Origin: Naegleria gruberi
Taxonomy: Eukaryota
Reading direction: 5' to 3' (one strand)
DNA: 64,000 nt
Assembly (NCBI GenBank): GCA_000004985.1
Contig: GG738864.1
Below the pieces are notes generated by a model that made no database searches, had not been told where the DNA came from, and saw only the letters and a list, made by a program, of their open reading frames with translations. Shown here one piece after another: positions 16,701 through 62,435 of the stretch (its first letter is position 1; each line of letters opens with the position of its first letter). The position numbers were made by a program, and so were the translations under genes.

Positions 16701-19700
16701 ATAGTCCTTCAGGAGTTGCAATTTCTTCCACTGCTGAAATTTACATTGCAGAAAATAAGAGAATTAGAAAACTTACAGCGTTCTGTACAGAGAATGGTGT
16801 GTTGATTGATGGAAAGTGTGTATTTCAATGTTTTGGATATACGAATAGTAATTCCTCACTTGTTTGTTCTGGAAAGGGCAACTGTATTGGAAATGATAAG
16901 TGCAACTGTTCATGGCCATACTCTGGTTCCAAATGTGATGAGTTTTATTGCAATGGAGTGTTGAATACTAACAAAACATTTGTGTGTTCATCTCATGGTA
17001 CTTGCTCATCTCCAAACAATTGTTCTTGTGTCGATGGTTTTTATGGAAATATTTGTGAATTCTTTTATTGTAATGGCGTACAACAAAATAGTTTAAATGT
17101 ATGCTCAGGTCATGGACTCTGCTCTTCTTTGAATAATTGCACCTGTCAACAAGATTATTCAGGCATTGATTGTGAAAATTTCCATTGTTATGGACTGTCT
17201 AGAGTTGATCCTAAAGTTTGCTCATCTCATGGAATTTGCTCTTCCATAAATAATTGCTCATGTGCAACTGGATATGGTGGATCTAAATGCAACGAATATT
17301 CATGTTATGATGTGAATTCTACGAATAAGACAGTTTGTTCTGGAAGAGGAACTTGTTCTTCTCCCAATAATTGTACATGCGATCCAGGATACTATGGATC
17401 AAATTGTGAATTGTACGATTGTTATGGAATATCCAAAAACAATTCGAATGTCTGCTCAGGACATGGTACTTGCATTGCTATCAATAATTGTACATGTACA
17501 GATGGTTACTATGATACCAAATGTGATTCATTCAATTGTGCAGGAGAGAAATTCACTGGTCAATCACTGTGTCAGAATAATGGTACTTGTTCTAATCCTG
17601 GTAATTGTGATTGTCCTTATCAGTTTGGAGGTGCCAGATGTGAATATTACAAATGTTATACCTATACTTCTAATGAAGCAAAAGTATGTGGCGGGCATGG
17701 TACTTGTTTAAATTACAATAATTGTTCTTGCTCTGGCAAGTGGATTGGTGACGATTGTACACAGACTACTTGTTATGGTAAAAGTTCAAACTCTAGCTCA
17801 GTATGTGGTGGAAGAGGTAATTGCACAGACTTTAATCAATGCACATGTTATGATGGGTATAGAGGTGTCGAATGTCAACACATTGTCTGTTTTGATAAGA
17901 TTGAAAACGATACATCAGTTTGTTCAGGAAATGGCAAATGTCTAACATCAAACAATTGTACATGTCAAATTGGTTATGTTGGAAATGAATGTCAATATCA
18001 CGAAATTTATTTGAATACCTCATCTGCCATAATATTTTCATTCCAGGAAAGTTTAATGAAATTGTTGCCAAATGAGAGTGGAATATTTTCATGTTCTGAA
18101 ATTTTCACTGATTCTGAAATTGCCAAATTTGGAGAAAGTACTTCGATTTCTTGCCAATGGAGAAGAAATTCACTCCTAATTCATCTTGGATTTGATTATT
18201 CTATTCAACAATACTCAATTATTCAATCAAAATTCAACTTTTCAATGAGAGTTTCTAGCTTGTCCTCAGTTTCTAATAGTGATGCTCCATCTCCAACTTG
18301 TTCTTTCGGATATGTATTGAATGAAGCTTCTCCATTATTGGATGTAGTGATACGTTTGAATTGTGATGAGAATTTGCATGGTTTTAAAAAGAGTAGAACC
18401 AGTTGGATGTGTAGTCAATGTACAGGAGCAATTTCATCAATTTTAAGTAACTATTCGAATAGATCCAGTGTTTATATTCCAATTTCGTATATGAACGCTT
18501 TGAATCCTGTTCAAGGATACAAGACAATTAATTTGCAAGCTTCTTATTCATCATCTGTTTCTTCCACCATTTCCACTAGTAAGGAAGTAAAGGTTCAAAC
18601 CTATACGAAATCTTTACCTCCAAGTTATTACTGGCTAAGTGATAATTATGATGGAAAAACCTATTCATGTGTTGGCCATAATTGTATCATTGAAACTTCA
18701 TTGAATAGTTTAAACTCCTCAATTTCTTATTCATTCTCTGGTTTATTTAGTTTATTGAACACTGATTTATATTCGAAACAAATGGTGAGATTGATAAATG
18801 AATTTTCAGGAGGAATTGTCGACAGTGAATTCAGTTCTAACATGCAAGTTTTTGGAGTTCAACTCAAGACCTATGTTTACTTACCGTATAGTATTGATTC
18901 ATTCAAATATTCCACATTTACAAATTTGGATTATGTCATGACAGGCGTCAATAGAACCTACTCAATCAATGCAGATAACTTAATAACTATAGGTTTGACT
19001 ATTGATGATCCATACATTTCAAAATACACATTAAGTGATTACATGGTATTCTCCTGGAAATGTTTCCAAGTTTCTCCTTCTAATAGGTCTTTAATTTTGA
19101 CCGATAATTTGTGTTCCTCAATAACTGACAATGCCAAATCAAATATTGAATTGGATATCAGCAAAATGTCTTTGAAAGAAGGTTCATATTTAATATCTGC
19201 TTCAATTTCATCGACTAAATACTTTGTTACAACAGTTTACAATTATGAAGGATGGATTGACTTGTTGGGAATTTCACAGGATTCTCCTCAGATAACTACA
19301 GATTATGTACCTGCTATTACTCCTTCTCATCACAATATTTATTTAAGAAATGTGGTGAAATCTTCAACAAGTGTTTCATTCTATTGGAAACTCAAAAGTG
19401 GTGAATTGAATATTGACGAAACTGTTGAAGATTTCCTTCAAAGAAATACAGTTTCTAAATCTATCTTGGGTAACAATGTTGAAATTATCTTGAATATTGA
19501 CAATGATTATCTCATCCAAGGAGAATATTATGAATTTGAATTGTCAACCAAGAATTCTAACGGTGTTTCAAATATTTCCATTTCAACAAGAATGGATTTC
19601 ACTCCTCGATTGTCATGTAATGTGGAAAATGTGAAGAATGAAGCTAACTTGACCAGTTTTGAATCTTTAATATCTATTACATGTGTAAAATTGCCATACG

Positions 19701-22134
19701 AAAGTATATCAAGTTTCGTCATGGAATTCCATTCACAAAACGAAAGATTAGGAGTCATTTCGAATACTCCAAAGAAGGCTCTTATTACCAGAGTTCCTTA
19801 TGCAATGGATGGAACAGTTACCTTAATCGTGAAACTTCAAAATTTATATGGATCTATTGGAATTTATAGAACTACTATCAGCGCTCAATTACCAAATGCT
19901 TTGACAAGTGACAACTCTATTTCTTCAAGATTTACATATGTATCCAAACAATTCCAAATTCTCAAAAATGCTCAACCAGCCAAAATTGAAGTTTCCAACG
20001 AAGTCAACACCTTACTTTCTTTATTAATCCAAAACGAAACTCTTTCTAAAATTTCAGAGAAAATTTCAAAGGAATTGAAATCTGATCAATTAGTTTCCTT
20101 TAATACAATGCTCAAAGAAATGCTAACCCTCACCAAGAGTCTACAAGACATTACTTACAAAGTTGATGAAAGATTAATTCAATTAATTCTGCCAATTGTC
20201 AACAAAATTTCCACAATTCTCAAATTAACTCTTGACACATCGTCATTATCCAATTTTGCTTCAGAATTGGAAATTTGGTTGGACTGGATTTATTCAGGAA
20301 TGAATAAGGCACTCAATTACTATCCAACTTTCATTTACAAGGAATTATTAGATGAATTTCATTTACAAGAAATTGTTTCGTTACAAAATATACTTTCGAA
20401 TATATACCAAAATAATTTGGATCAACAATTTAAATACCACAAGTACAATTTACAATATATCAAGCTTACAGGAAGTAATAGTGATAATTCAAGCTTTGTG
20501 GAAGATGTTGAGTTTTCTGATTTATTGAATGACAAGTCAATTTCACTTTCTGTTTCTAATTTTAAAGTTGATATGAAATTACCAAGTGATTTTACCAATC
20601 AAATTTCATTGAAATCAAAATCAAAACTATACTATTCCATTACCTCATTCAGTGATAATCAAACTGGTTCAAAACTTTTACAAAACAAACCAATAATTGA
20701 CCTATCTCTGTACGATACATCTTACAATGCAATATCAGTTGACAACATTAATCCACCAATAGTTTTCAAGTTCCAAGGATTGTTTTCCACTAACAAGACT
20801 AATATTAACACAACTTGTGTCTATTACAATACCATACTAGGAAAATGGTCAACCAATGGATTGCAAACAATTACAAGCGTTACCAAACGAACTGAAGAGT
20901 ACATGTACTTTGATATGGAATGTCATTCAAGTCACTTGTCTGTATTCTCAGTTCAAGAGGTTGATTACAACACCCCAATTATACCAGCCATTTCATCTAA
21001 CAAAGCTTCAAACCAACAAGAAAATCTCACCATTATTTTAGCTACTGTTTTACCTGTTAGCTTTTTAATCCTTATTTTCATTATTATCCTCTTTGTGTTT
21101 ATCATTTTACTATTCAGATTTAAGCAAAAGAAAGCAAATGAATTTGCCATTGCAACCAAAACCAATCTTGAAATGGAAGGTTTCTCAAGCAGTGATTTCC
21201 CATCCTCAGAAGGAAGCATGTTTATTCATCCTCTTATGAGTATTTCCTCAAATGGAACAACTAGTGAAGCATTCAATCCATTGTCAAGATATTCTGATTT
21301 AGTAAGAATTGGCCAAGGAGCTTTTGGAAGTGTTTTTAAAGCATTTGATAGTAAGACGTCAACTGTTAAGGCGATTAAGGTAATTAAATATTCATCCATG
21401 GAGGAGTTGAATAATTTCATGAAAGAAGGAACGCAGTTGATGAATGTGACACATCCTTATATTTTGAGAGTGAATGATTTCTTTGTGAGTAAGGATCAAT
21501 TGCTATGTATAGATATGGATTTTTATGAATTAGGAGATTTGGTCAAATTGACCAATGTTGAATTTGATTGCTCGGAGAAGTTAATCAAACAAATTATTTA
21601 TCAAATGTGTCAAGCTTTGGATTATATTCACTGCAATATGAAAATCATTCACAGAGATATCAAACCATCTAATGTTTTTGTAAAGAGTATGGAAAATGAC
21701 GATATTCACATTATTGTTGCCGATTTCGGATTGGCTAAATCAAATATTGGTGGATCAATGAATAATTCCTATGCAGGTACACCTATATTTATGGTAAGTT
21801 TTCAAATATTTCTTTCGATTCGAATAATTTTTAGTCTCCTGAACTTGGCTTGGGTGGAAAATATTATTACAATACTGATATTTACAGTTTAGGTGTTACT
21901 GTATATCAAATAATGACCAAAGACACCTCTACTTCAATCAGTCAATTGTATCTTGGAAAGGAACAAAATGAAGTTACAACGCTATTGAGAAAAAAGCTTA
22001 AAGATGGTGGACATTATTCTGAACGAGTTGTGGAATTGGTTTTACAAATGTTAACAAAGGATAATTTAACTAGGCCACAAGCTCAAGATATTTTGGAAAA
22101 TTCCTATTTTGATGATTTGAGAATGAAACGATAA
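13777..22134 (+). CDS. Giant receptor Ser/Thr kinase with NHL beta-propeller repeats, EGF-like repeats, a TM segment and a kinase domain (single-base frame disruption near 14332; one 41-nt intron)
   Basis: The signal peptide is MKACFFVLLLLCIFLFSLA. About 28 NHL-type repeats (...YIADSxNNRIRKIxxNG.ISTIAGTG...) run through ORFs 13777..14343 and 14300..21892, which differ by one base. About 15 EGF-like modules (C..G.C...N.C.C..GY.G..C) follow, then about 1000 aa of unknown ectodomain, a TM helix (IILATVLPVSFLILIFIIILFVFIILLF) and a kinase (GQGAFGSV, AIK, HRDIKPSN, DFG, GTPIFM). A GTAAGT...TTTTAG intron at 21794..21834 leads to exon 21835..22134 (SPELGLGGKYYYNTDIYSLGV). The stop is TAA. Confidence 0.7.
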
Positions 22135-24686: not shown

Positions 24687-26729
24687 ATGAGTGGTGCTGA
24701 TTTTGTGTTGTCTGCCACTACTACCAATAATAACAATGGTGATGATACTATTCATCAAAAGATACAATTATTTACTCAAGCTATTGGTGAGGTAGACCAA
24801 GAAGGAAAGTCAACAACTAATGCAAGTAGTGCTCGTAGGTGGAGTTTTTCATCAGATTCTTCATCCTCCTCTTCTCATTCGTCAAATTCATCATCGGGTG
24901 CAGATGATACTGCTGATGATGAAGATGAAGAAATAACAATGGTTTGGAATAATGCAACTGACAGTAATGTTGATAATAATATTGAAACTAGTGTTACAAC
25001 TCCTTTGAATAATAAGATTGTTATTATTACGAATGAGGAGGACATTGGAGAGGAAGAAAATACATTATCAGACTCATCAGATATTATTTCGAATACTTAT
25101 AATTCAATAGAACAGAAGGAAGAAGATAAACCAGTCGTACCTTCTTATGAAAAGTTTAGTTTGAAAGAACAGTTGAAACTCAAGCTTCCTTCTTCAATAC
25201 TTCATCTCACTTCTCCTAATAACACAACTAGTAATAATAACAGTTCAACACAATTTACAACAACAACACTAACAGACAATAGTTCAAAATCAAGCTCTCC
25301 ACAAACACCAACCGAGAAACCAACAACAAATGGTGATGAATCACTGCAAATCATGGAATTAAATATTGAAAGTCCAAATGAAGAGTTAGACGATACATCG
25401 AGGAGATTTACATTCAATTCTACCGATATTATCAAGGCAGTTTTTGAAGGAAAACACGATGAGGAAGTTGGAAAACTGTTACAAACAGATGTTTCTGATT
25501 ATTTAACACAACTAGTCAAGAGGAAAAATCAAATTACCAATCCAGTGGTGATGCCGAGTCCCTCTCCTATCAAGAGGATGAACTCTACCTTCCTCACTCC
25601 TTCTACACCTTTAGGGATGACAAAGTCTGGCTCATCTAGTGATATATCCAGTCCTTGTTCATCACCAAATTTGGACAAATTGAATACAATTATTGAAAAG
25701 AAAAAACTTTCCAGGTCTAATACTACTGTTCACAATTATACACTCTCCCCAGAATTAAAGCAGAGAAGAAAAATTACAGCAATTGGATCCGGAATGATTC
25801 CAAATGATTTTAATATGGTACAATCTCCATTGAGTGATTATGGAATTGATTTTTCACAATCTGATAGCAAAATAACTGCTTCCAAAAGGTCGATGAGCAT
25901 TGGGCCAAATCTTCAATCCTACTATTCTTCATCTACAAATGCAATGAAGAGTGATCCTAACTCTGTTTCAACAGACGATATTTACAGAGTTACAATTCTA
26001 GGATCTGTTGGTGTTGGAAAATCATCATTAATTAACAAATTTATTAAGGGAACATTCTCCAATGAGTATAATTCTACAGTTTTCGAGGATATTTATCACA
26101 AGCCACTCATGTTTTTGAAATATCAGGAAATTAAGCTTTTGGAAATATTGGACACAAGTGCCCTACACATCAAACATTACAAAAATAAGGCAAATCAAGA
26201 GGATGAATCACCATCCATGGAGATACCTTCAAGTTTTCTTAGTGATTATATTATTAACTGTGATGCATACATACTAGTGTACAGTGTGGATGACATTCAA
26301 AGTTATAAATATTGTAAGGATATTTACAAATCAATTGTCGGTCAGAAAAAGATGGCTGGTCTTAAAAGAACTAGATCAAACTTGAGAGCTAGTGGAAACA
26401 GTCTCATAGCAACGCCAAGAACAGTTGCTCGATCTGATGTTCCTCTTGTCCTTGTTGGAAACAAGTCAGATGTTGGAATTGAGGAAAAATTTATTGATTC
26501 AAAAGTAGTTTGGGAAGATGTACATACAGAGCTAGCATTTGGTTCAAATTGTTCTTTTGTGGAAACTAGCGCCAAGAAGGAAGATGTTGATTGTATTTTC
26601 CAAGCACTTGTAAATAGAATTTGTTTGAGGGAAGAACCAAAGACTTCTTCCAAAATACAAATATCCTCTTCACTTCCAACCAAAAAGACAGGTCAACACG
26701 ATTCAAATAAAAAGTGTGTCATTCTGTAG
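24687..26729 (+). CDS. Ras-family small GTPase with a long Ser/Thr-rich N-terminal extension and a C-terminal CAAX box
   Basis: The ATG at 24687 is in a good context. The C-terminal GTPase domain has G1 GSVGVGKSS, G4 GNKSD and G5 ETSAKK, and ends KKCVIL (a CaaL-type prenylation motif) before TAG. The gene is intronless. Confidence 0.7.
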   Translation: MSGADFVLSATTTNNNNGDDTIHQKIQLFTQAIGEVDQEGKSTTNASSARRWSFSSDSSSSSSHSSNSSSGADDTADDEDEEITMVWNNATDSNVDNNIETSVTTPLNNKIVIITNEEDIGEEENTLSDSSDIISNTYNSIEQKEEDKPVVPSYEKFSLKEQLKLKLPSSILHLTSPNNTTSNNNSSTQFTTTTLTDNSSKSSSPQTPTEKPTTNGDESLQIMELNIESPNEELDDTSRRFTFNSTDIIKAVFEGKHDEEVGKLLQTDVSDYLTQLVKRKNQITNPVVMPSPSPIKRMNSTFLTPSTPLGMTKSGSSSDISSPCSSPNLDKLNTIIEKKKLSRSNTTVHNYTLSPELKQRRKITAIGSGMIPNDFNMVQSPLSDYGIDFSQSDSKITASKRSMSIGPNLQSYYSSSTNAMKSDPNSVSTDDIYRVTILGSVGVGKSSLINKFIKGTFSNEYNSTVFEDIYHKPLMFLKYQEIKLLEILDTSALHIKHYKNKANQEDESPSMEIPSSFLSDYIINCDAYILVYSVDDIQSYKYCKDIYKSIVGQKKMAGLKRTRSNLRASGNSLIATPRTVARSDVPLVLVGNKSDVGIEEKFIDSKVVWEDVHTELAFGSNCSFVETSAKKEDVDCIFQALVNRICLREEPKTSSKIQISSSLPTKKTGQHDSNKKCVIL

Positions 26730-27014: not shown

Positions 27015-28142
27015 TTAGGCTGCCCCCTCCGGTCCAATATTATTGCTGGAAATATCTAGTATTACCAAGTTGGGCAATCTACTTATTGCTCTAGCACCTT
27101 CCACACCAAAATGATTATAAGAAATATCTAGTTCAGTCAATTGTGTCATTTCACCAATGTAATTAGCTCCTGTTGCATTCATCTTTGTTGCACTAACATT
27201 CAAAATCTTTAAATTCTTCAATTTCTTAATGAATCTAGCACCCTCAGATTCTATTATATTTGATTGAACATCGAGGAGAGTGAGATTTCTTAGTTGAGAT
27301 ATAAATTTAATTCCTCCCAATTCAACAATATTGAAGGTAGCTCTCAATTCTATTAAATTCTTCATTTCTCCCAAATATTTAGCTCCTTCTGGATTAATTT
27401 CATTCCGACTCACATCTAAACTTGTCAAATTCACTAATCCACTAGAAAGAAGTCTCATGCCCTCTGGACCGTTATAATATCCACTAATCTTTAAGTATTT
27501 TAAATTATTCATCCTTGCAATAGCTTCAAACCCTTCCAAATCAATCATATTCCAGCAAATAACAAGTGAAGTCAACTGTTTCATCTTGCTAATTGAAATA
27601 GCTCCGTTAGGTCCTATGTTATTCAAAGGTATTTGCAATGTTTTCAAATTCTTCATTTTACTAATATATTTGGCTCCTTTACGCCCAACAGAATTTTTCC
27701 CAATATCCAAATAGGTCAATTCTTTCAGTTTGCTGATTAGTTTTGCCTCCTTTTCTTTTAATCCATTTTCATTAATCGAAAGACAAGTTAAATTTTTCAT
27801 TAATGACAAAACTGTTAAAAATTGTTTGTCTCTAATAAGATTCGCATAATTGACCTTAACATTTCGAATAGAGTTAAGCACTTGACTATTTCTCAAGTGT
27901 TGAACTCTTTCCTCTTGAATAATTTGATGAAAATCCAAACAAAGTTTAGAATATTGGTTGATCAAGAAGTAGGTCCATTGTTTGGAAATTAAAGGACAAT
28001 ATTTTAAAATTTCCCAACCTGTTAGAAAGCTCATAATTTCATGTATAATATCATCAGGAAGGAAATTATCTGAAAAGTTTCTAATAGAAACCTCGTGTGG
28101 TGTCGTTAATTTGGAGTTTCGCATTTTTTTTATTGTAAACAT
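27015..28142 (-). CDS. F-box / LRR (ribonuclease-inhibitor type) protein ending at an in-frame TAA inside the repeat array
   Basis: The first ATG is at 28142..28140, and the track start at 28157 is a GTG. An F-box motif (LPDDIIHEIMSFLTGWEILKYCPLISKQW) is followed by about 12 LRR_RI repeats. The TAA at 27017..27015 falls mid-repeat (IGPEGAA*). The same frame then continues with two more LRR units (ISGMSNLKSL...GAKSISGMKQLTILNISNN...) down to a TAG at 26829. Confidence 0.6.
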   Translation of the reverse strand: MFTIKKMRNSKLTTPHEVSIRNFSDNFLPDDIIHEIMSFLTGWEILKYCPLISKQWTYFLINQYSKLCLDFHQIIQEERVQHLRNSQVLNSIRNVKVNYANLIRDKQFLTVLSLMKNLTCLSINENGLKEKEAKLISKLKELTYLDIGKNSVGRKGAKYISKMKNLKTLQIPLNNIGPNGAISISKMKQLTSLVICWNMIDLEGFEAIARMNNLKYLKISGYYNGPEGMRLLSSGLVNLTSLDVSRNEINPEGAKYLGEMKNLIELRATFNIVELGGIKFISQLRNLTLLDVQSNIIESEGARFIKKLKNLKILNVSATKMNATGANYIGEMTQLTELDISYNHFGVEGARAISRLPNLVILDISSNNIGPEGAA

Positions 28143-28268
28143 TTCAATATGGAACACTCTTGGAACTTTTTCGAATAGTATGTCAAGTTGTATCCACTGA
28201 TTAATTGTAAACTATTCCACAACCTCTTAAATTTCCCTTAATTATGAAACAAAACTTTACAAAAAAAA

Positions 28269-29314
28269 ATGAGTCAAAATGATCAAGGTTCACCACTATC
28301 ATCAAATTTTGTATTTTCGGAACAGCGCTGTGATGATGAAGAAAATTCCTTCCCTTTGGAAACAGCGATATTAAAAATGAACATCATGATGATAACGGTA
28401 TTAATTTTAGAGATCAATTTCCTGATGAAATGTGTTATGAAGTATTGTCCTTCCTTTCGCATAGATTTATTTTGAGGACGTGTACGCTGATTTCGTCTCA
28501 GTGGTATAATGTTATTAAGGAACGTTGTTTGTTTTCGACTATGTTCAATTCACCCGTTACTAAAGAAAGAGCTCAATTGATGATTAATAGCCCCTTTCTG
28601 GAACGAATAATCTCTGTAAGTTGTACACAAGCAGCAACTACATGTAAACAATATTGGAAAGCCATTGGAATGATGAAACGATTGACTTATATTAACACAG
28701 TTAGTAACCAAATAACCTCGAATGTACTGTACATTATTAAGAATATTACAAAATTGAAATCGCTCCAGACATTATATATTGGATTTAATCCATTAGGAGA
28801 CGAGGGAGTTAAATTATTGGGTGGAATACCCAGTTTAACAAGTCTTAGTATTTGTGCAACCTCCTCAACTTTTGAATCAATGGGAGCTATTAGTCAATTG
28901 AAGAATCTCAATTATCTTGATGTTGCTTATTGTGACATTGGCGTGGAAGGGTCTAAAATAATTAGTGGAATGACCCATTTAACTGAACTTGATATTTCTC
29001 AGTCAAATATTGGGTCGGACGGAGTTAAATATATTTCTCAAATGTCAAATTTGAAAAATTTATTTATACCTGCAAATGAAATATTGGACGAAGGGGCTTT
29101 ATTTATTAGTAGTGGATTGAAAAATCTCACATTTCTCGAAATCAGTTGTAATGCACTGACGGATATAGGAATCTCAAGTATAGCTAAAATGAATCAATTG
29201 GAAGGTTTAGCCATCAACAAGAATAACATTGGTGAGGAAGGTAGAAAAGCTCTCACTCAAATGAAGGCATCCAGAACTAAATTTTATTTAGAATGTGATG
29301 ATTTGGTCCAATGA
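28269..29314 (+). CDS. F-box / LRR (RI-type) protein, apparently frameshifted between ORF 28269.. and ORF 28430..
   Basis: ORF 28430..29314 starts one residue into an F-box (FPDE|MCYEVLSFLSHRFILRTCTLISSQWYNV) and carries LRR_RI repeats. The upstream ORF 28269..28475 (MSQNDQGSPL...) overlaps it in another frame. One extra A in the A5 run at 28373-28377 would fuse them into a single protein. The two genes sit head-to-head about 130 bp apart, and the partner is the F-box/LRR gene at 27015..28142. Confidence 0.5.
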
Positions 29315-29396: not shown

Positions 29397-30902
29397 TTAT
29401 TTTTCTTTTGAAAATTTGAATCTATTTCCAAGGGCTAGTTGGAACAATGAGGAAGATAGAGAAATACCCTTCTTCAAACCAATTGCTTGATTCGAAGATC
29501 CTCCAACAGTTACAGACAAATCAGAGGCACTGTGTACATCTGGAATGTTCACTTTTTGTTTAGCATTCAGTTCTGGAGCTGAATTGCCACATACTCTTGC
29601 CTTAATGTTTGTCTTCCTAGAAAATATTGACCTCTTATTATTGCTGGCGTCGGATGTTGTGGTTTTAGATCTCTTTCTCGTTAAAAAGGCCTTATGTTCT
29701 GAGGAGGCCAGAGATTCTTCCTCTCCTTCTGAACAATCTGTGATATCACTTTCTGTATCACTACTCGTTTCATTGTTTCTATAGTAAAATAATGAGTCTG
29801 TGCTGCTGCATAGAGACTCACTTCGTGGTGTGGATGTTGAGGTTGGAGTTCCAGATTTGACTTTTCTTGGTGTTGTTACGAAACCAAAGTCAGTTCCTTC
29901 TTGTTGCAAGTTATAGATGCAATTCCAGGAATCAGTGAGCATGAGAACCTTTTTGAATACCTTATCAACGTGGTATCGTTGTTTGGCACTAACTTCAATA
30001 TAGGAGGAGAGATTGTGTTTCAATTTCATTTCTCTCATTGCTTGTCTGACTTGTTTCTTTGAAACAACCCTTGAACACATCATATCAATCTTATTGGCAA
30101 TTATTATTATTGGGAAATGTTCAATTTTGGATAATTGAAACTTTTTCTCTTGGACTTCTGCAACAAGTTGCTTCATTTTCTCAAAACTCGATTCGTTGGT
30201 AACGTCAAATACAAACACAAAAACTAAACTTTCTCTGATATAAGAGTCTTTCAAGTCTGCGTATTGATCTGAACCAGAAGTGTCTGTTATGTATAATTCG
30301 AAAGTTTCCAACTCTGTCTTTCTCACAATTTTGCTGTAAGATTCTTGAATGGTTGGATCATGGAAATTAGGGAAGGATTTTTGAACATATTGGGAAATGA
30401 TTGAGGTCTTGCCACATGCTTCATCTCCAACTAGGCACATTCTGACCTTTCTATTGTAATGTATCGAATAGTTATTCGATACATAATCGTCTTCTTCGTC
30501 CATTGTAGTGGACACTGTATCAAGAAAATCGCTTTGCATGGTGGCAACATCAAGTGATTGACTATGCAATCTATCAAAATGTTGTTTACATGGTGTTCTT
30601 GGAGTGATATCAGATTCACTCTTTGTAGCAGATGAAAGATTTGAAACAGTTCTCTTCAAAACTTGATCTGTTATAACATTAGACCTTTGAGTCAATCCAT
30701 CAGAGTTGGTAATAAAGCATGATCTCAATGAATATGGAGAACAATTACAAAAGATTGAATTATCATCTACAAAGAGTGTGTCCATCCCACTGCAATAACT
30801 TATCGAGCCACTCAATCCACACAAATCACTACTCGATGAATAAGTGGTCGTCATCCCAAAATTGACACAATTACTACTACTTGTCTTTTTATAAGCTGAC
30901 AT
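29397..30902 (-). CDS. Ras-like small GTPase with N- and C-terminal Ser-rich extensions
   Basis: ATG at 30902. The central GTPase domain has G1 GDEACGKTS, effector TIQESY, DTSGSDQY, G4 ANKID and G5 SAK. There is no CAAX, and the gene is intronless. Confidence 0.7.
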   Translation of the reverse strand: MSAYKKTSSSNCVNFGMTTTYSSSSDLCGLSGSISYCSGMDTLFVDDNSIFCNCSPYSLRSCFITNSDGLTQRSNVITDQVLKRTVSNLSSATKSESDITPRTPCKQHFDRLHSQSLDVATMQSDFLDTVSTTMDEEDDYVSNNYSIHYNRKVRMCLVGDEACGKTSIISQYVQKSFPNFHDPTIQESYSKIVRKTELETFELYITDTSGSDQYADLKDSYIRESLVFVFVFDVTNESSFEKMKQLVAEVQEKKFQLSKIEHFPIIIIANKIDMMCSRVVSKKQVRQAMREMKLKHNLSSYIEVSAKQRYHVDKVFKKVLMLTDSWNCIYNLQQEGTDFGFVTTPRKVKSGTPTSTSTPRSESLCSSTDSLFYYRNNETSSDTESDITDCSEGEEESLASSEHKAFLTRKRSKTTTSDASNNKRSIFSRKTNIKARVCGNSAPELNAKQKVNIPDVHSASDLSVTVGGSSNQAIGLKKGISLSSSLFQLALGNRFKFSKEK

Positions 30903-46549: not shown

Positions 46550-47877
46550 AAATCTCTAGATTTAGTCAATTACAAGCTTTTAAGATACACTGGCTTCTCT
46601 ATCGACCTAATTCAATTTCTTGTTTCCAAAATGACAAACGTGTCCATTGAATTTTATGAAGCTCCAGATGGTACCTTTGGTAGTCCAACTGCTGCGAATG
46701 TGAATGGAAACTGGTCAGGAACCATCGGTGAAATAATATCTGGTCGTGCTGATGTCATGATTGGCCCTTTAACAATTACTCAAAGTAGACATCAAGTCAT
46801 GGATTTTACAACAAGTTTCTTTGATGTTGGACTTTCTATTCTAACTCTTAAACAAGGAGAGGAATCTAATTTATTTTCATTCTTATTACCATTCTCGTGG
46901 GAGGTTTGGATTTTGATTTTCGTGAGTGCATTAATAGTTGCCTTGCTAACATGGGTTTTTGACCATGTTTCGCCTTATGGACATTCGAAACAATCAGACG
47001 AATCAAAGAATGAATTTGATTTTAGTGGTTCGTTAATCAATGTATGACAATATCTGGTCAAGACGGAAATCCAGGTAAAAGCTGGTCAACCAGAATCATG
47101 TTGTTAGGTTATTTCCTCTTTGTCATGATTATTCTCTCAACTTATACAGCTAATTTGGCAGCCGTCCTGACAACAAAGGTTCAATCCACAAGAGTTACTG
47201 GACTATCTGATATCAGAACCTACGGATTCAAGTTTGGTGTGGCTAAAAACTCTGCTCCTGCTTCTTACATTTCCAGCAGTGAAGACATGGCAGATATCAA
47301 AAAGAATATGGTTGTATTCGATTCCCTCGATGATTGTTTACAAGCTCTGAGAGATGGAAAGGTGGATGCTTTGATTTGGGCAAGTGCCATTCTCGAATAT
47401 ATGGCCAATCAACCACCATGTGATACTTTGGTCGTTGGTGATTTGTTTAGTCCTGGAAATTATGGTTTACCTTTTGCTAAGGGAAATTGGATGATTGGTC
47501 ATTTCACTTCGGTGTTGTTGTCGATGAGAGAAAGTGGACTTGTTGAGAAACTCAAAAGGAAGTGGTGGATTGATAAGGGAAGCTGTTCATTGGTTGAATT
47601 GACACAAACAGCAACAGGTGTAAAGATTCAAGACTTGGGAGGTATCTTTTTGATTTTGGCAGGTTTTGTAGTTGTTGGTGGTGTGGTTTTGATATTCGAA
47701 TTAGTATATAGGGCTGTATATGACAAGACAAAACACAAAACTAAACATCTGAAATATCTGAATAGATTCTTGGGAGGTGAAAAGCACCTAGTTCAACGTG
47801 AGAAAGATGTACAGGAATTGAACACCACGAATATTGCAACTCCAACACTCGAAAAAGATGGGAATATGAACCAGTAA
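46550..47877 (+). CDS. Ionotropic glutamate receptor-like channel (S1-M1-pore-M2-S2-M3, no amino-terminal domain); 5' exon unresolved; single-base frame disruption near 47024-47026
   Basis: Features are S1 (YTGFSIDLIQFL...NGNWSGTIGEIISGRADVMIGPLTITQSR), M1 (FLLPFSWEVWILIFVSALIV), a pore loop with the SYTANLAAV(LTT) signature, S2 (KVDALIWASAILEY...GLPFAKGN) and M3. ORF 46631..47047 and ORF 47044..47877 are offset by one nucleotide across the M1-pore linker (NEFDFS|WFVNQCMTISGQDGNP). The frame is open upstream to 46550, and a candidate first exon with ATG lies at 46444. Confidence 0.6.
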
Positions 47878-48055: not shown

Positions 48056-48173
48056 GGCTACGGCCATATCACGATGAATGCACCTCATCCCGTCCGATTT
48101 GAGAAGTTAAGCATCGTCGAGCCACATCAGTACTGAGGTTGGAGACAACTTGGGAACCTGTGGTGCTGTAGTC
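48056..48173 (+). rRNA. 5S ribosomal RNA
   Basis: GGCTACGGCCATATCACGATGAATGCACCTCATCCCGTCCGATTTGAGAAGTTAAGCATCGTCGAGCCACATCAGTACTGAGGTTGGAGACAACTTGGGAACCTGTGGTGCTGTAGTC matches the eukaryotic 5S consensus, and its terminal helix pairs GGCTAC with GTAGTC. A T6 run follows. The 5' boundary is accurate to about 3 nt. Confidence 0.85.
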
Positions 48174-48179
48174 TTTTTT
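48174..48179 (+). terminator. RNA polymerase III T-run terminator of the 5S gene
   Basis: TTTTTT lies immediately after the 5S 3' end. Confidence 0.6.
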
Positions 48180-48321: not shown

Positions 48322-49278
48322 TTACACCATCAAACAGCCTTTCTTTTTTTTATGTAGAGATAATACCTCTTCCAGCACTTTTTTTGGATCATCAATACGT
48401 ACTCGAAACTTTCTAACACATTCTTCCACTAATTTATCAATATTTTCATTTGTTTTTGCACTTGTTTTCAAAATTGTACAATTAGTCAATTCAAATTCTT
48501 TTACAACTTCTTGTACCATTTCCAAATTAATTTCATACCTATCAGGGAGATCACATTTGTTCATGGCAATCATACAGGGAGCATTCTTTCCCTTCCTATC
48601 TACAAATTTACTTATCAATATTTTCAATTCTTCCAAACTTTTCTGGTCTATCATTGAGCAAACAAGAATCAAAACATCGAACATGCAATTTTTCCAATAA
48701 TAATCAGTTTCTTCCTCACTACACGTATCCAAAAAGTTTACAGTTTCCTCTTCATCATCCACAGAGATTGTTCGTTTGTACGAATCATAACCGGTAGGGT
48801 CATATTCTAGGAAGAATTGCCCATATATAAATCTTGTTATGATTGAGGATTTTCCACTGCCTCCCCTTCCAATCACTAACAGCTCAATAATTGGTGTATC
48901 AAATTTTTTTCTAAATATTTTCCCTTGTTTTTCTCTTGTTCGAATCAAATGAATAAAGTAACCTAAACTTTTAACAACTCCAATCTTGGCGAATTTATCA
49001 AAAACATGCAAAGATTCCATTTCTTTTGATTCTACTGATATCGAATACTGATCAAATATCACACCAACAAAAATCCAACAAAATTCATCAATGTATTTTG
49101 CAATAAATTTCGAATAATTTGGATGAATCAATCGGAAACTTAATACATTCGGAATGGAGTTTTTTAATTGATGGAAATATTGTTCATGCAATTTTCTTTC
49201 AGCTAACTCATAAAACGGAGACAAGTATGAAATAATTTCTGTATGAATCTCTTGGGGAAGTTGAAGAAATTTGGACAT
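48322..49278 (-). CDS. F-box-like N-terminus fused to a Ras-family GTPase with a polybasic-CAAX tail
   Basis: ATG at 49278. The N-terminus has LQLPQEIHTEIISYLSP (F-box-like). The GTPase core has G1 GRGGSGKSS, G4 MNKCD and G5 TSAK. The C-terminus HKKKKGCLMV is a polybasic stretch plus CAAX before TAA. The gene is intronless. Confidence 0.65.
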   Translation of the reverse strand: MSKFLQLPQEIHTEIISYLSPFYELAERKLHEQYFHQLKNSIPNVLSFRLIHPNYSKFIAKYIDEFCWIFVGVIFDQYSISVESKEMESLHVFDKFAKIGVVKSLGYFIHLIRTREKQGKIFRKKFDTPIIELLVIGRGGSGKSSIITRFIYGQFFLEYDPTGYDSYKRTISVDDEEETVNFLDTCSEEETDYYWKNCMFDVLILVCSMIDQKSLEELKILISKFVDRKGKNAPCMIAMNKCDLPDRYEINLEMVQEVVKEFELTNCTILKTSAKTNENIDKLVEECVRKFRVRIDDPKKVLEEVLSLHKKKKGCLMV

Positions 49279-49393: not shown

Positions 49394-49466
49394 GCCGACA
49401 TAGCTCAGTTGGGAGAGCGTAAGACTGAAGATCTTAAGGTCCCTGGTTCGATCCCTGGTGTCGGCA
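49394..49466 (+). tRNA. tRNA-Phe (anticodon GAA)
   Basis: The sequence is GCCGACATAGCTCAGTTGGGAGAGCGTAAGACTGAAGATCTTAAGGTCCCTGGTTCGATCCCTGGTGTCGGCA. It has a 7-bp acceptor stem (GCCGACA/TGTCGGC), a D-loop AGCTCAGTTGGGAGAGC, an anticodon loop ACTGAAGAT, a T-arm GGTTCGATCC and discriminator A. There is no intron, and it is followed by a T5 run. Confidence 0.9.
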
Positions 49467-49864: not shown

Positions 49865-50881
49865 TCAAATAACACCAATATCAAGTGATGTTAATTGTTT
49901 CATTTCACTTATGAATTTGGATCCTTCTACACCAATTTGATTGTAAGTAATGTCAAGTGATGTTAATTGTTTCATTTCACTTATGAATTTGGCTCCTTCT
50001 ACACCAATTTGATTGCCAGTAATATTAAGTGTTAATTGTTTCATTTCACTTATAAATTTGGATCCTTCTACACCAATTTGATTGTAACCAATATTAAGTG
50101 ATGTTAATTGTTTCATTTCACTTATATATTTGGATCCCTCTACACCAATCCCATTATAATATATATCAAGTGATGTTAATTGTTTCATTTCACTTATGTA
50201 TTTGGCTCCTTCTACACCAATTTGATTGTAACCAATATTAAGTGATGTTAATTGTTTCATTTCACTTATATATTTGGTTCCCTCTACACCAATTCCATTA
50301 TAATATATATTAAGTGATGTTAACTGTTTCATTTCACTTATGTATTTGGATCCTTCTACACCAATTTGATTGTAAGTAATGTCAAGTGATGTTAATTGTT
50401 TCATTTCACTTATGTATTTGGCTCCTTCTACACCAATTTGATTATCAGAAATATAAAGTGATGTTAATTGTTTCATTTCACTTATGAATTTAACTTTATC
50501 TGGAGAGTTACGCAACCTATAACAAAACTTAACATTTACAATACTATTCTTGAATTGGCTTTTCATAAACAATTCAATTCTATTTTCTGTAAATTGTTTT
50601 TTAAATTGAATAACAAGTCTTGAACGTTCCCGGATCACATTAAAGAATTGTTTTGAAATTAAAGAACAATTATTCAAAATAAACCACGAATCATCAATCA
50701 TGGAAATTATGTCAAAACAAACATCATCTGAAAATATATCTTGTTGGAGTTTCACAACTTTTTTTGCTTTCTCTTTCATCGAATAATTATCATTAATCAA
50801 TAGCTCCTCCGAAATTAATTGATTTGCAAAATCTTGGCTGATTCGTTTGCTCATTTTTTTATTACTAATAGTTTTCTTCAT
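49865..50881 (-). CDS. F-box-like / LRR (RI-type) protein with about 11 near-identical 24-aa repeats
   Basis: ATG at 50881. The N-terminus (FDIISMIDDSWFILNNCSLISKQFFNVI) is F-box-like. It is followed by tandem LTSL(N/D)I.YNQIGVEGAKYISEMKQ repeats. The stop is TGA at 49865. Confidence 0.7.
   Translation of the reverse strand: MKKTISNKKMSKRISQDFANQLISEELLINDNYSMKEKAKKVVKLQQDIFSDDVCFDIISMIDDSWFILNNCSLISKQFFNVIRERSRLVIQFKKQFTENRIELFMKSQFKNSIVNVKFCYRLRNSPDKVKFISEMKQLTSLYISDNQIGVEGAKYISEMKQLTSLDITYNQIGVEGSKYISEMKQLTSLNIYYNGIGVEGTKYISEMKQLTSLNIGYNQIGVEGAKYISEMKQLTSLDIYYNGIGVEGSKYISEMKQLTSLNIGYNQIGVEGSKFISEMKQLTLNITGNQIGVEGAKFISEMKQLTSLDITYNQIGVEGSKFISEMKQLTSLDIGVI
49871..50495. repeat. Tandem array of about 8.5 copies of a 72-bp unit (one 69-bp copy) inside the LRR gene
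   Basis: The unit tcaagtgatgttaattgtttcatttcacttatgaatttggatccttctacaccaatttgattgtaagtaatg recurs with more than 90 percent identity, and the differences cluster at a few positions. It encodes the 24-aa LRR repeat. Confidence 0.8.
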
Positions 50882-53745: not shown

Positions 53746-56493
53746 ATGAACATTCTCTTCTTGGTTGATACATCTTCATCGATGAATCAACTCACAACCA
53801 ATGGGATGAAATTGATTGATATTTCCAAGCATTGTATTGAACATTTCATCAAGAATAGACAAAAACATTTAATGCACCAACAAAAAAGGGATAATTATCT
53901 ATTGGTAACATCTGGACAAAAGGTAGTTGTTGGATGGAAAGATGCCACGGAATCATCATGTTTCCTTCAAAGATTGAAATCCCTAAAGGCTAATGATTTG
54001 ACTGAAATTGGGCCATCTTTGAAAAAGTCTTTTGATGTTTTAAATCAACATCGGCTTCAAAAAGGAGTGGACCATTATGGCATGGGAAGACATGCAAGTG
54101 CTGTAGAAAATTCTGCTATTGTTTTAATTACGGATGGTGAAAGATTAACTCAATCTGTTAATCCATTCGACCAAAGAGTATTTGTAAATCAATTTTTGGA
54201 TGCCAACAAATTGACACTCCCTAATCCACATTCATATTCTACAAAATTGACAGAGGAACCATTTAGATGGGATCAAAGAGTGTTCAGTATTATTTTACAA
54301 TTTCAAGCTGTTGGTACTTCTTTGACAACTGTTTCTCCATCAGCTTCACTTAATCCCTCATTGGCCAATCAACAACAACAACAAGCCAATTTGACAAATC
54401 AAACACCAACTATTACAGATAATCCAATAGCTCCAATAAGTGAAGTTACAGGTGGCTTATCGAGAACTTTCTCAAATATGGTTTCTCTCCTAAAATTTAT
54501 GGATGATTTATCTGGTGTTCAGCTTGCTAGACCTTCAGTGGTTGTAAATTTTGACATTGTAAAAACATTGAATAATAAGCAATCCAGTGTTTTCCCTCCA
54601 ACAAATAATGAGGGTCTAGGAAAAACTGTACTACAATATATTACTCAACCTCAGCAAAGAGAATCCTTTTGGCCAATACCAGAGAACTATCTTCCAGGTG
54701 CTAACATGACAGAACTGCCAACAAGAAGAGCTCAACCATCTATTTCTTTACTATATACTGAAAAGAATGATATTCTTTTGACAATGGCTCTTAACAAATT
54801 CCCAATTTATGATATTTTTGAAATCAGTACTCAAAGTCCAATTGGAAAATATGTTATTCAACAGTCAAGCAGAGAAGGATGCTATAAAGCCTTTGTAACA
54901 AACAGTACTCCGAGTAATTATGGATTTGGAGAAAGTTTTGGATTTTTAAAGAAGATTGCTGTCCAAAATAGTACTGGAGAAGTTGAAAATAAGATTTATT
55001 TCTACCTTCTGCCATATAACTTTTTGAGATTATTTTATTTGATGAATGAGTTTGTTGTAACCCACAAGTCTCAACCCTCAGCTGCTTGGATCCAACAGTT
55101 CCATAAATTTGTACAGAATCTCCCTGCCTACTATATCAAACCACTTAAATCAGCGATGAACAAATGGTTTGGAGCATTTGCCCATTTCCCTGATGTACCT
55201 TACGAACTACCAAGCTCATTACAACTCTATTACAAGCAACTAGTTGATGAGGAGAAACGATTTAACAAAGATATGGAATTAGAGGAAAGTGGATCATCTA
55301 CCAATGTAAATTTACCAAATGACTCACTTCCAAAAAATGACGACCAAATGCAAGATCCTCCATCCTTCCCAATAATCAGTTTCACAAATCCATATGTTGC
55401 CAAAAAGGAAACCAATAATTTAATTAGAAATCCATTCGATATCGACAAAACATCACTCCTGAAACAAATGAAAATGATGAGCCAGTACCTTTTCCATTCA
55501 GTTGTTGTAGAAGTTCCAGAAGATGCTGACCATTCTAAAATACCTTTGGATCAACATTTAAGAGATTTATCAAAAGAAGAAATTAAGAAACACTCCACTC
55601 CAATATCTCAAATGGGTAACTTTGATAAGGTATTATTGTCTAAGGAGGTTTTGAGAGACCCATTCGAGCCTCAAAAGCAGAAACAAGTCAACTTTGGAAG
55701 CCCATATCAGAAAAAGAAAAAGAGATTGAGATCAATTCATATGAACGCCCCATTACTTCTCGATAAATTAGTTGATGAATCTGAGATGGATCTGAAACAA
55801 AAGGAGGAGGAAGAATCATCAGAATTTGATGCAAAGGTGGAATCAATGCTCTTATTAGAACCAAACATTGCCGATTCAAATGTATCATCAATACCAGTTG
55901 AACCTAGTTCAGCTCCACTTGAAACACACGAACCTTTTGAAACAGAGTTAGAAAAGATTGAACCAGTTCCACCAATTATTGAAGATGCTGTTCCAATTAT
56001 TGTAGATGATGTAATACCTGACCAATATGCAGCCCTAACACAAAGTAGTACTAAGCCACAATCCCCTACCTCAAATCTTCCTGGTAAAGCGGCCAATTTT
56101 AGACCTCCATCAACCAATAGAAAATCTAAAGCTAATCCTCAAAAAGAACATGCTCAATTATTTGTTGATAGTTTCCAAAACAACCATGAATGTTTACAAT
56201 TTGTTTCTCAACTTCCTGACCCTTTACTTTCAGCTGTTGTGACGAGAGTAATGCAACAAGAATTAACAGATGGCAAAAAGAAACAACAACTAGATGCCAT
56301 TAGATCAAAGATAAGAAAAAGAAAACGTAAAGACATGGAAGAATTGGAAGAAGCAAAAGATATTACTTCTGATATTAATAAGGTTCATTTCCCAACTAGA
56401 GAAAGTAGGACAGTCTTTGTTAGAGAAATAATCGCTATAGCCGCTTTATTTAAAAAAACCAAACTAGCTCAATTATTGACAGAAGAGCTCTAA
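53746..56493 (+). CDS. Integrator complex subunit 6 (INTS6/DICE1)-like protein
   Basis: The N-terminal vWA domain has the INTS6-type signature (ILFLVDTSSSMNQ...YLLVTSGQKVVVGWKD...TEIGPSLKKSFDVLNQHRLQKGVDHYGMGRHA...VLITDGERLT...LTEEPFRWDQRVFSIIL). It is followed by a long low-complexity middle and a conserved C-terminal helix region. The single 915-aa exon starts at ATG 53746. Confidence 0.7.
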   Translation: MNILFLVDTSSSMNQLTTNGMKLIDISKHCIEHFIKNRQKHLMHQQKRDNYLLVTSGQKVVVGWKDATESSCFLQRLKSLKANDLTEIGPSLKKSFDVLNQHRLQKGVDHYGMGRHASAVENSAIVLITDGERLTQSVNPFDQRVFVNQFLDANKLTLPNPHSYSTKLTEEPFRWDQRVFSIILQFQAVGTSLTTVSPSASLNPSLANQQQQQANLTNQTPTITDNPIAPISEVTGGLSRTFSNMVSLLKFMDDLSGVQLARPSVVVNFDIVKTLNNKQSSVFPPTNNEGLGKTVLQYITQPQQRESFWPIPENYLPGANMTELPTRRAQPSISLLYTEKNDILLTMALNKFPIYDIFEISTQSPIGKYVIQQSSREGCYKAFVTNSTPSNYGFGESFGFLKKIAVQNSTGEVENKIYFYLLPYNFLRLFYLMNEFVVTHKSQPSAAWIQQFHKFVQNLPAYYIKPLKSAMNKWFGAFAHFPDVPYELPSSLQLYYKQLVDEEKRFNKDMELEESGSSTNVNLPNDSLPKNDDQMQDPPSFPIISFTNPYVAKKETNNLIRNPFDIDKTSLLKQMKMMSQYLFHSVVVEVPEDADHSKIPLDQHLRDLSKEEIKKHSTPISQMGNFDKVLLSKEVLRDPFEPQKQKQVNFGSPYQKKKKRLRSIHMNAPLLLDKLVDESEMDLKQKEEEESSEFDAKVESMLLLEPNIADSNVSSIPVEPSSAPLETHEPFETELEKIEPVPPIIEDAVPIIVDDVIPDQYAALTQSSTKPQSPTSNLPGKAANFRPPSTNRKSKANPQKEHAQLFVDSFQNNHECLQFVSQLPDPLLSAVVTRVMQQELTDGKKKQQLDAIRSKIRKRKRKDMEELEEAKDITSDINKVHFPTRESRTVFVREIIAIAALFKKTKLAQLLTEEL

Positions 56494-61082: not shown

Positions 61083-62435
61083 ATGGCAGACGATCTATTA
61101 ATGAGTTTTATGTCTATCACAGACGAAAACAACGTTGAAACTGCTCAACATTACTTGGAAGCAGCTGGATTTGATTTGGAGACTGCTGTAGAATTATTCT
61201 TCTCTAATCAACCTGCAAGTAAATCCAATTCAAGTGCTACTACTACTACAAGTAACAAGCCTACAATACCCTCCGATTATGAAGATATTAGATCACCTAT
61301 TCCGCAACAAGCCTCCAGACTGTATGACTCATTTCAAGGAAATGATTATTCCTATGATAATTCTCAATCCTATTCTGTACCATCTTTTGTAACTTCAAAT
61401 CAATACAACAATAGAGCAAACCAACAATTCCAATCATCAAGATTAACAAAACACGGTGATGAATTTTCGGAAATGTTTAAAAAGCCAGATATTGTATTTA
61501 AGGGAAGTTTTGATGCTGCCAAACAAGAGGCTGAAACATCAGGAAGATGGCTTATTGTAGAAATTCAAAAGGATGATATTTTTGACTGTCACAGAATGAA
61601 TAGAGATACTTGGAATCACGAAGTTGTGAAAACAATTGTGGATACATTCTTTGTTCTTTGGCAAGCTGATGATGGAACTAATCAGGCTGAATTATTTAAA
61701 ACAAGATATCGTATTCGTTCCTATCCTTTCGTTTGTATTATTGACCCAAGAACTGGAGAAAATATGAAGACTTGGGAAGGTAAATATATCGATGCCAGCA
61801 CAATGGTAGATTCTCTTCAAAACTTTGCCGATAGTCACTCACTTATGGATCACCTTCCTTCACCATCTCCAAATACTTTACATACTCCAAATCCATTCGA
61901 TAATATTCCAGTTCAACACCTTCCTTCAACAACGGCAACAACAACAACTAGTCACCATACTGATATGTCAACAGGTGATGAAACAGAGGAAGAAATGATT
62001 AGAGCTGCTATTGAGGCTTCACTCCAAGAATCTAATGCCATGCAGGACGATGACGTGCAAATTTTAGATAGTTTCCCAATTGCTCAACCAACAACAGCCA
62101 CTAATACTATATCGACACCAGTTGTTCAAGAACCACCAAAACCTCAAGAAACACCTGACAAGCAAGTTAATGTTTCCGATTTTGTCGTTGAACAAGGAGA
62201 TACAACCAGAATTCAAGTTAAATTACCAGACGGAAAGAAGGAAGTTATTAAGATTTTGAAGAGTGCTCCATTGGCAGCTGTTTATGCTGTCTGTAGACAA
62301 AAATTAGGAGACAGTGTACCATCATTTACCATTACTTATTTTGACAAGACTCAAAAGACTTTGGAAAATACCTTAGAAAAAACTTTAGGAGGAGAAGGAA
62401 TTTTAGGAGCTGCTTTATCAGTTGTTCCTGAATAA
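61083..62435 (+). CDS. UBX domain protein 7-like p97/VCP cofactor (UBA - UAS - UIM - UBX)
   Basis: The N-terminal UBA-like region is LLMSFMSITDENNVETAQHYLEAAGFDLETAVELFF. It is followed by a thioredoxin-like UAS domain (GRWLIVEIQKDDIFDCHRMNRDTWNHEVV), a UIM (EEEMIRAAIEASLQES) and a C-terminal UBX domain (TRIQVKLPDGKKEVIKILKSAPLAAVYAVCRQ...FTITYFDK). The gene is intronless and stops at TAA. Confidence 0.75.
   Translation: MADDLLMSFMSITDENNVETAQHYLEAAGFDLETAVELFFSNQPASKSNSSATTTTSNKPTIPSDYEDIRSPIPQQASRLYDSFQGNDYSYDNSQSYSVPSFVTSNQYNNRANQQFQSSRLTKHGDEFSEMFKKPDIVFKGSFDAAKQEAETSGRWLIVEIQKDDIFDCHRMNRDTWNHEVVKTIVDTFFVLWQADDGTNQAELFKTRYRIRSYPFVCIIDPRTGENMKTWEGKYIDASTMVDSLQNFADSHSLMDHLPSPSPNTLHTPNPFDNIPVQHLPSTTATTTTSHHTDMSTGDETEEEMIRAAIEASLQESNAMQDDDVQILDSFPIAQPTTATNTISTPVVQEPPKPQETPDKQVNVSDFVVEQGDTTRIQVKLPDGKKEVIKILKSAPLAAVYAVCRQKLGDSVPSFTITYFDKTQKTLENTLEKTLGGEGILGAALSVVPE

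Follow-up and report, generated by a model that had tools for sequence, protein, structure and literature searches.

The window analysed here is a 64,000-nucleotide stretch of the Naegleria gruberi nuclear genome (contig GG738864.1). On its minus strand, positions 48322..49278 form a single uninterrupted open reading frame (ORF) whose 318-amino-acid product is identical, end to end and at 100%, to XP_002678008.1 (EFC45264.1; UniProt D2VD42), a protein named by NCBI 'ras family small GTPase [Naegleria gruberi]'. Because this identity covers the full length of the product, the public gene model consists of the same single exon. The following features were distinguished along it:

48322..49278, minus strand: coding sequence of XP_002678008.1, complete, single exon, 318 codons plus stop
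49219..49269, minus strand: F-box helix-1-like motif, residues 4-20, FLQLPQEIHTEIISYLS (Pfam, hhalign)
49159..49218, minus strand: variable insert, residues 21-40, between the helix-1-like and helix-2/3-like blocks
49054..49158, minus strand: family block (v)xNFQSLxK...FNEFWW, residues 41-75, SIPNVLSFRLIHPNYSKFIAKYIDEFCWIFVGVIF, weakly colinear with F-box helices 2-3
48892..49053, minus strand: linker, residues 76-129, predicted helical at low confidence (paralogue alignment, AF2)
48397..48891, minus strand: Ras-family G domain, residues 130-294 (Pfam, AF2, comparison with solved sequences)
48847..48870, minus strand: G1 (P-loop), GRGGSGKS
48790..48804, minus strand: G2 (switch I), YDPTG, with the Thr35 equivalent present
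48718..48729, minus strand: G3 (switch II), degenerate, DTCS for DTAG
48550..48561, minus strand: G4, NKCD
48454..48462, minus strand: G5, SAK
48352..48387, minus strand: C-terminal helix, residues 298-309, PKKVLEEVLSLH, conserved in paralogues as LLKxVxxxD
48325..48351, minus strand: polybasic KKKK, Gly and CaaX box CLMV, residues 310-318

The Ras gene is flanked by two Pol III genes. Downstream, ~150 bp from its stop codon, is a 5S rRNA gene (48056-48174, plus strand; Rfam, 105 bits); upstream, ~115 bp from its ATG, is a tRNA-Phe(GAA) gene (49394-49466, plus strand), and the 5' intergenic region is therefore very short. A gene of the ionotropic glutamate-receptor-like type lies at 46631-47877 (plus strand; Pfam Lig_chan-Glu_bd, 65 bits, and Lig_chan, 59 bits; motif YTANLAAVLT). 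It is broken into two ORFs that share an ATGA (47044-47047), an overlap that implies either an intron or a frameshift. Elsewhere, the window holds a 2530-amino-acid ORF (14300-21892, plus strand) whose product appears by eye to consist of NHL-type repeats, followed by numerous EGF-like, Cys-rich repeats, one transmembrane segment and a protein kinase at the C-terminus, and two genes of housekeeping type recognized by Pfam, one for a UBA, thioredoxin-like, UIM and UBX protein (61083-62435, plus strand) and one for an INTS6-like protein with VWA and INTS6 beta-barrel domains (53746-56493, plus strand).

The N-terminal extension of the Ras gene looks to be coding. An in-frame TAA stands two codons 5' of the ATG, and the second methionine of the protein is residue 87. 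The extension belongs to the coding sequence because the frame is continuous from that upstream stop, because a run of 129 stop-free codons has a chance of only ~5e-5 at this base composition (GC is ~33% in the window and 32% in the genome, where ~7% of random codons are stops), and because the codon-usage log-odds are positive in frame 0 only, for the extension and the G domain alike. The original prediction, of an F-box-like domain fused to a CaaX-tailed Ras GTPase, had considered that the N-terminal region might turn out to be a separate upstream ORF; the continuous frame and the stop two codons before Met1 rule out a separate ORF or exon for the head.

Sequence and predicted structure place the G domain in the Ras family. 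Pfam Ras (PF00071) matched residues 133-291 with 89.2 bits (E=2.8e-25; cut-off 21.6), the nearest solved sequences were those of RalA, Rap1, Ras, Di-Ras and KRas (E ~1e-21), and AF2 modelled residues 130-295 with pLDDT 65-92 in the Ras order of strands and helices (beta1-alpha1-beta2-beta3-alpha2-beta4-alpha3-beta5-alpha4-beta6-alpha5). The domain had been described as complete: this is borne out for G1, G2, G4, G5 and the PF00071 match, but G3 reads DTCS and Gln61 is lacking. In the alignment to RalA, DTCSE falls on DTAGQ (Rap1 also has DTAG), which puts a Glu at the Ras Q61 position and leaves the target's G3 with neither a Gly60 nor a Gln61 equivalent. Because G1, G4 and G5 are intact, we infer that the domain still binds guanine nucleotide; because the Gly60/Gln61 equivalents are absent, established Ras biochemistry suggests that GTP hydrolysis is probably poor and switch-II behaviour impaired, the properties of an atypical, largely non-cycling GTPase. 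The polybasic-CLMV end claimed for the protein was found as a KKKK-G-CLMV tail (the C-terminus reads HKKKKGCLMV), in which the final Val is unusual, most paralogues having Met there. The CaaX cysteine would be expected to be prenylated and, together with KKKK, to anchor the protein in a membrane.

Ras-family domains were likewise confirmed in the three other extended Ras/Rab genes that had been pointed out in the window (at 7692, 24687 and 29397), and a Pfam F-box match was found in none of these ORFs. The gene at 24687-26729 (plus strand) has a Ser/Thr/Asn-rich N-terminal extension of ~430 amino acids and a CVIL tail, and that at 29397-30902 (minus strand) carries its G domain at residues 155-320 between long flanks and has no CaaX; the F-box-like motif is absent from both products. 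The ORF at 7692-8339 (minus strand) comprises the C-terminal two-thirds of a G domain only (Pfam columns 57-158) and ends in CCIS. Upstream of it, a short ORF (8493-8657, minus strand) that ends KVIIVGG resembles a G-domain start exon (no Pfam match), and the two together appear to make up an intron-containing Rab-like gene.

At the N-terminus, the LxLPxEIxxxIxSYL head that had been claimed is present at residues 5-19 (LQLPQEIHTEIISYL, i.e. L-Q-L-P-Q-E-I-H-T-E-I-I-S-Y-L), and its LPQEIHTEIISYL conforms to the F-box helix-1 signature L-P-x-E-(I/L)-x-x-x-I-(L/F)-S-(Y/F)-L. Against the two Pfam F-box models named with the original prediction, the target nevertheless stayed under both cut-offs: PF00646 gave 12.9-15.1 bits (E=0.07-0.11 at 12.9-13.6 bits; cut-off 20.5) and PF12937 gave 11.3-15.2 bits (E=0.05-0.32; cut-off 24.3), and the matches covered helix 1 only (residues 4-25, approximately the first 20 profile columns). 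Within the head, residues 4-20 alone are picked up by the Pfam F-box models, and hhalign at default settings likewise aligns no other part. After a 20-amino-acid insert, the target's block VLSFRLIHPNYSKF...EFCW keeps the hydrophobic register of an F-box and not its K-R-W, in that the Cys/Ser-Lys-Arg-Trp of F-box helix 3 becomes H-P-N-Y, with Pro-Asn-Tyr replacing Lys-Arg-Trp. A first, ad hoc deletion of residues 22-43 left the Pfam match no longer than before, and a deletion guided by the family alignment described below extended it a little, to 15.7 bits over columns 1-30 of 43. A search of PDB sequences with the N-terminus alone returned no matches, and AF2 (two runs on alignments of 3-4 sequences) assigned residues 1-129 a pLDDT of 30-50.

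Four other genes in the window begin with F-box-like heads, the head being joined to LRR_6 repeats in three of them and to ankyrin repeats in the fourth (49865-50881, minus strand; 27015-28157, minus strand; 28430-29314, plus strand; 3494-5515, plus strand). The heads of these LRR and ankyrin genes are also weak: three of the four score 11-19 bits, under the Pfam F-box cut-offs, and that of 49865-50881, for which a Pfam F-box match was not found, was recognized by eye only. Sub-threshold F-box heads may be the rule in the N. gruberi genome. Because the neighbouring heads also score low, and because the head of the Ras gene belongs to a family, its failure to reach the Pfam cut-offs is not decisive.

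Paralogue sequences for this family were taken from Herman et al. (2021, BMC Biol 19:142; PMC8296547, Table S8), who give corrected 'Ras' protein models for N. gruberi; the source is a supplementary table and not a sequence database. The N-terminal module of the target (residues 2-75) is common to at least 13 N. gruberi Ras paralogues, and many of the corrected models align with the target over its whole length. Their shared layout begins with LPxEILxxILSF, an insert whose length varies from 0 to ~30 amino acids, (v)xNFQSLxK and FNEFWWnlF, and continues through a linker, helical and marked by L(K/R)RK(I/V)LL, and a G domain of divergent sequence to the LLKxVxxxD helix, basic residues and, in most of the complete models, a CaaX end. 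The target's linker (residues 76-129) aligns loosely, at low confidence, to the paralogues' L(K/R)RK(I/V)LL helix. An HMM of the N-termini built without the target matched target residues 2-75 with 33.9 bits (E=2.5e-8 in a 15,727-protein proteome), whereas none of 2000 shuffles exceeded 11.6 bits; judged by this profile, residues 2-75 are homologous to the N-terminal module of the paralogues. The degenerate switch II recurs in the same set. DxxGQ has been lost from most of the extended Ras paralogues, which read DTIES, DTDAA, DCSTD, EEPSI, EMKGN or NDDIH at this position, and a few retain DTAGP or DTYGQ. Since it is common to most members, degeneration of G3 is a trait of the family and not decay of the target copy, and the extended Ras subfamily as a whole may consist of atypical, poorly hydrolysing GTPases.

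Searches of public databases recovered little of this family. The N-terminal 129 amino acids found nothing in a word-indexed set of 5.8 billion proteins and only the target itself in an exhaustive phmmer search of 1.84 billion, the full-length target retrieved itself and one weak G-domain match, and a profile search for further members yielded two proteins only, P0003 (153 amino acids) and P0004 (N. gruberi, 281 amino acids), which were compared with the corrected models of Table S8. Several paralogues have public gene models that begin at an internal Met (e.g. MPEMERYF...) and do not include the LPxEIL head. The N-terminal searches were nearly empty because the public models of most paralogues lack the N-terminus, and for the same reason the AF2 alignments held only 3-4 sequences and the N-terminal structure models were unusable. 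A search for orthologues with the same fusion, suggested at the outset, had a divided outcome: at least 13 paralogues in N. gruberi share the module, but the N. fowleri Ras set contains no 1:1 orthologue of the target or of the family members used. By its G domain, the target is most closely related to a model on ACER01000199.1, which is marked as a putative pseudogene. Together, the missing 1:1 N. fowleri orthologue and a pseudogene as closest paralogue fit weak constraint.

The relationship of the family module to F-boxes was assessed against nine reference F-boxes, six of them entered by hand and all nine admitted only after passing Pfam thresholds. In hhalign comparisons, the family profile matched these nine with a probability of 84-94% (P=1e-7 to 8e-6) over a stretch restricted to 17-18 columns of helix 1, and on this evidence the module's first helix is significantly similar to F-box helix 1. 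The block that follows the insert was not significant by itself (P=0.19). When the insert was removed, a choice made post hoc, the family profile aligned over 45 columns and three helices and the score rose from 28.2 to 33.9, a value attained in 16 of 1000 trials in which the columns of the second block were permuted (p=0.016); in this register, for example, family SIPNVLSFRLIHPNY pairs with Skp2 CLPELLKVSGVCKRW. The alignment positions the variable insert at the H1-H2 loop of an F-box.

Individual family members point in the same direction. XP_002668120, the sole paralogue that is naturally free of the insert (LPYEIHCHLLSYWRHLNIILNFQSICKKINDFFNEFYWNLF), matched PF12937 over columns 2-38 of 47 (E=0.009), and XP_002673837 with its insert removed gave the best family score, 23.3 bits (E=5.6e-5; cut-off 24.3); the Pfam F-box gathering threshold was reached by no member of the family. 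The insert-removed family HMM also matched two Naegleria GTPases with Pfam-positive F-boxes, the Rac-like XP_002676320 and the Rab-like XP_002677491, with 20.3-20.6 bits (E ~3e-4) and over helices 1 to 3; when the insert was retained, the scores were 15.5 and 7.5 bits, respectively. Among PDB sequences, the family profile found FBXO42 (E=0.58, helix 1) as the sole F-box amid unrelated helical proteins. We therefore regard it as probable, from these sequence comparisons, that the N-terminal module is F-box-derived and carries an insertion in the H1-H2 loop. The F-box-like head originally predicted is partly supported: it misses the Pfam cut-offs, but it has a helix-1 match, belongs to a family module and becomes weakly colinear with F-box helices 2-3 once the insert is removed. 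Genomic context helps this reading as well, since the F-box is the commonest additional domain on Naegleria GTPases (PMC8296547).

Taking these results together, we read the gene, with somewhat more confidence than doubt, as a member of a lineage-specific, fast-evolving N. gruberi Ras subfamily in which an F-box-derived module and a linker precede a divergent G domain, and a short C-terminal helix leads through a basic patch to the CaaX box. The alternative that best withstands the evidence, and which we consider a serious if rather unlikely one, is that the module represents a helical domain specific to this family, with a regulatory, autoinhibitory or oligomerizing role and no part in SCF function, whether as an F-box descendant that does not bind Skp1 or as a convergent LPxEIxxxILSF helix; the protein would then be an N-terminally extended, prenylated, atypical Ras. 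It would account well for an F-box likeness that is significant in helix 1 only, for Pfam F-box scores that all lie under threshold, for a post-insert block that is not significant alone (P=0.19), for the 0-30 amino acids inserted at what would be the H1-H2 loop, for H-P-N-Y where helix 3 should have Cys/Ser-Lys-Arg-Trp, and for an extension predicted, at low confidence, to be all-helical. It sits less easily with the similarity of helix 1 to validated F-boxes (P ~1e-6), with an insert-free paralogue that is colinear over 37 of 47 F-box-like columns, with the match of the insert-removed profile to helices 1-3 of bona fide Naegleria F-box GTPases (E ~3e-4), and with the frequency of F-box-headed GTPases in the Naegleria genome.

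An improbable alternative is that the gene is a recently duplicated, decaying product of birth-and-death evolution with no maintained function, in which case the degenerate F-box and G3 would reflect relaxed selection. Birth-and-death dynamics have been described in divergent Naegleria GTPase clades (Herman et al., PMC8296547), neither an orthologue nor a close paralogue was found among ~5.8 billion proteins, N. fowleri lacks a 1:1 partner, the nearest relative (ACER01000199.1) is annotated as a putative pseudogene and G3 is degenerate. However, the ORF runs intact over 318 codons in a genome of 32% GC in which ~7% of random codons are stops; its codon usage is frame-specific; G1, G2, G4 and G5 have all been kept, as have the polybasic patch and the CaaX box; and the degeneration of G3 is shared with most of the family. 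Finally, it is very improbable that translation starts at Met87 and not at the annotated Met1, giving an ordinary small Ras behind 86 untranslated codons: a methionine does stand there, ~45 residues ahead of the G domain, but residues 2-75 fit a protein-level family profile (E=2.5e-8), the frame is open from the stop two codons upstream of Met1, and codon usage of the coding type is confined to frame 0.

The proposed fusion had been put forward as an undescribed architecture, and in this respect it was anticipated: F-box domains joined to Ras-superfamily GTPases are already known from Naegleria (PMC8296547, Supplementary Material 4 and Table S8) and from trypanosomes (PMC3593210). Herman et al. 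reported Naegleria proteins in which an F-box accompanies a GTPase of the Rab-like, Rho, Ran or G-alpha kind, among them three divergent Rab-like subgroups that have a conserved N-terminal extension in which an F-box is recognizable in some members; a CaaX motif occurs in one of the three subgroups and in many Rho-family members (PMC8296547). They resemble the target in layout: an F-box or a conserved extension stands at the N-terminus and is followed by a linker and a small GTPase domain, with a CaaX behind it in some. None of these published Naegleria cases is a Ras, whereas the target's head belongs to the Ras subfamily, contains a variable insert and scores below threshold; Table S8 enters the target and its extended paralogues simply as 'Ras', flags no F-box for them and gives the target no additional domain (PMC8296547). 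The F-box-GTPase architecture is thus already documented in Naegleria and the target extends a known theme, which makes the claim an incremental one. What seems to have gone unreported is a Ras-family subfamily, target included, with a split, sub-threshold head of the F-box type.

In trypanosomes and euglenids, a separate discoban lineage, TbFRP combines a FYVE domain with an F-box and a Ras-like GTPase domain, and a link to ubiquitination or turnover has been proposed for it (Field 2005; Adung'a and Field 2013, PMC3593210). TbFRP resembles the target in having its F-box N-terminal to the GTPase domain and differs in its N-terminal FYVE, which serves PI3P-dependent membrane binding, and in a GTPase domain that is closest to Rab18. 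Its authors found no N. gruberi orthologue (PMC3593210), and Pfam finds no FYVE domain in the target. With the FYVE missing and the published N. gruberi search negative, we rejected orthology between the two proteins.

Rab40, which is prenylated, is the best mechanistic analogue of the target. In the Rab40-Cullin5 CRL5 complex, a small GTPase with its own cullin-RING-ligase docking motif serves as substrate receptor (PMC8129794, PMC9070665). Its docking element differs from the target's, being a C-terminal SOCS box that engages Elongin BC and Cul5 in place of an N-terminal F-box for Skp1 and Cul1, and Rab40 is a metazoan member of the Rab family whereas the target belongs to the Ras family. 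RhoBTB, a Cul3 adaptor with poor hydrolysis, parallels the target in the fusion of an atypical GTPase domain to a cullin-adaptor domain (tandem BTB). It differs from the target in using BTB and Cul3 instead of F-box and Cul1 and in placing its adaptor domains C-terminally, and it is not known to have a CaaX anchor. RhoBTB is also present in Naegleria (PMC8296547). In FBXL2 and FBXO10, an F-box and a C-terminal CaaX give SCF activity that is specific to a membrane compartment (PMC9988375, PMC11042265), but the substrate-binding domains of these proteins are not GTPase domains.

If the favoured reading, of an F-box-derived module on a membrane-bound Ras, is correct, anchorage in a membrane would come from the CaaX box and KKKK, the G domain would bind GTP and cycle poorly, and the F-box-like head would dock onto Skp1-Cul1 (SCF). 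The G domain could then act as a membrane-bound substrate receptor whose binding partners are ubiquitinated locally, in parallel with Rab40-Cul5 and with the prenylated receptors FBXL2 and FBXO10, or the head might govern the turnover of the protein itself, as was earlier proposed for TbFRP. Extended to the whole subfamily (at least 13 loci, target included), the idea of membrane-anchored, hydrolysis-impaired SCF substrate receptors that act through an insert-bearing F-box is a tentative one, about which our doubts outweigh our confidence. If true, a protist would have independently evolved a counterpart to Rab40/CRL5 within the Ras family, and Naegleria would command an extensive repertoire of ubiquitination that is directed by GTPases and localized to membranes.

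For the annotation of this group, the variable insert has a practical consequence: by splitting the motif, it causes domain-database thresholds to miss a whole subfamily of F-box-like heads. The published count of Naegleria F-box GTPases is probably too low, because such split heads fall under those thresholds. Should the head bind Skp1, Ras G domains would take their place as membrane SCF receptors beside the Rab-like, Rho, Ran and G-alpha cases. The 'GTPase-dependent ubiquitination' that Herman et al. proposed for Naegleria (PMC8296547) would then extend to the Ras family, as an independent parallel to Rab40-Cul5 and RhoBTB-Cul3.
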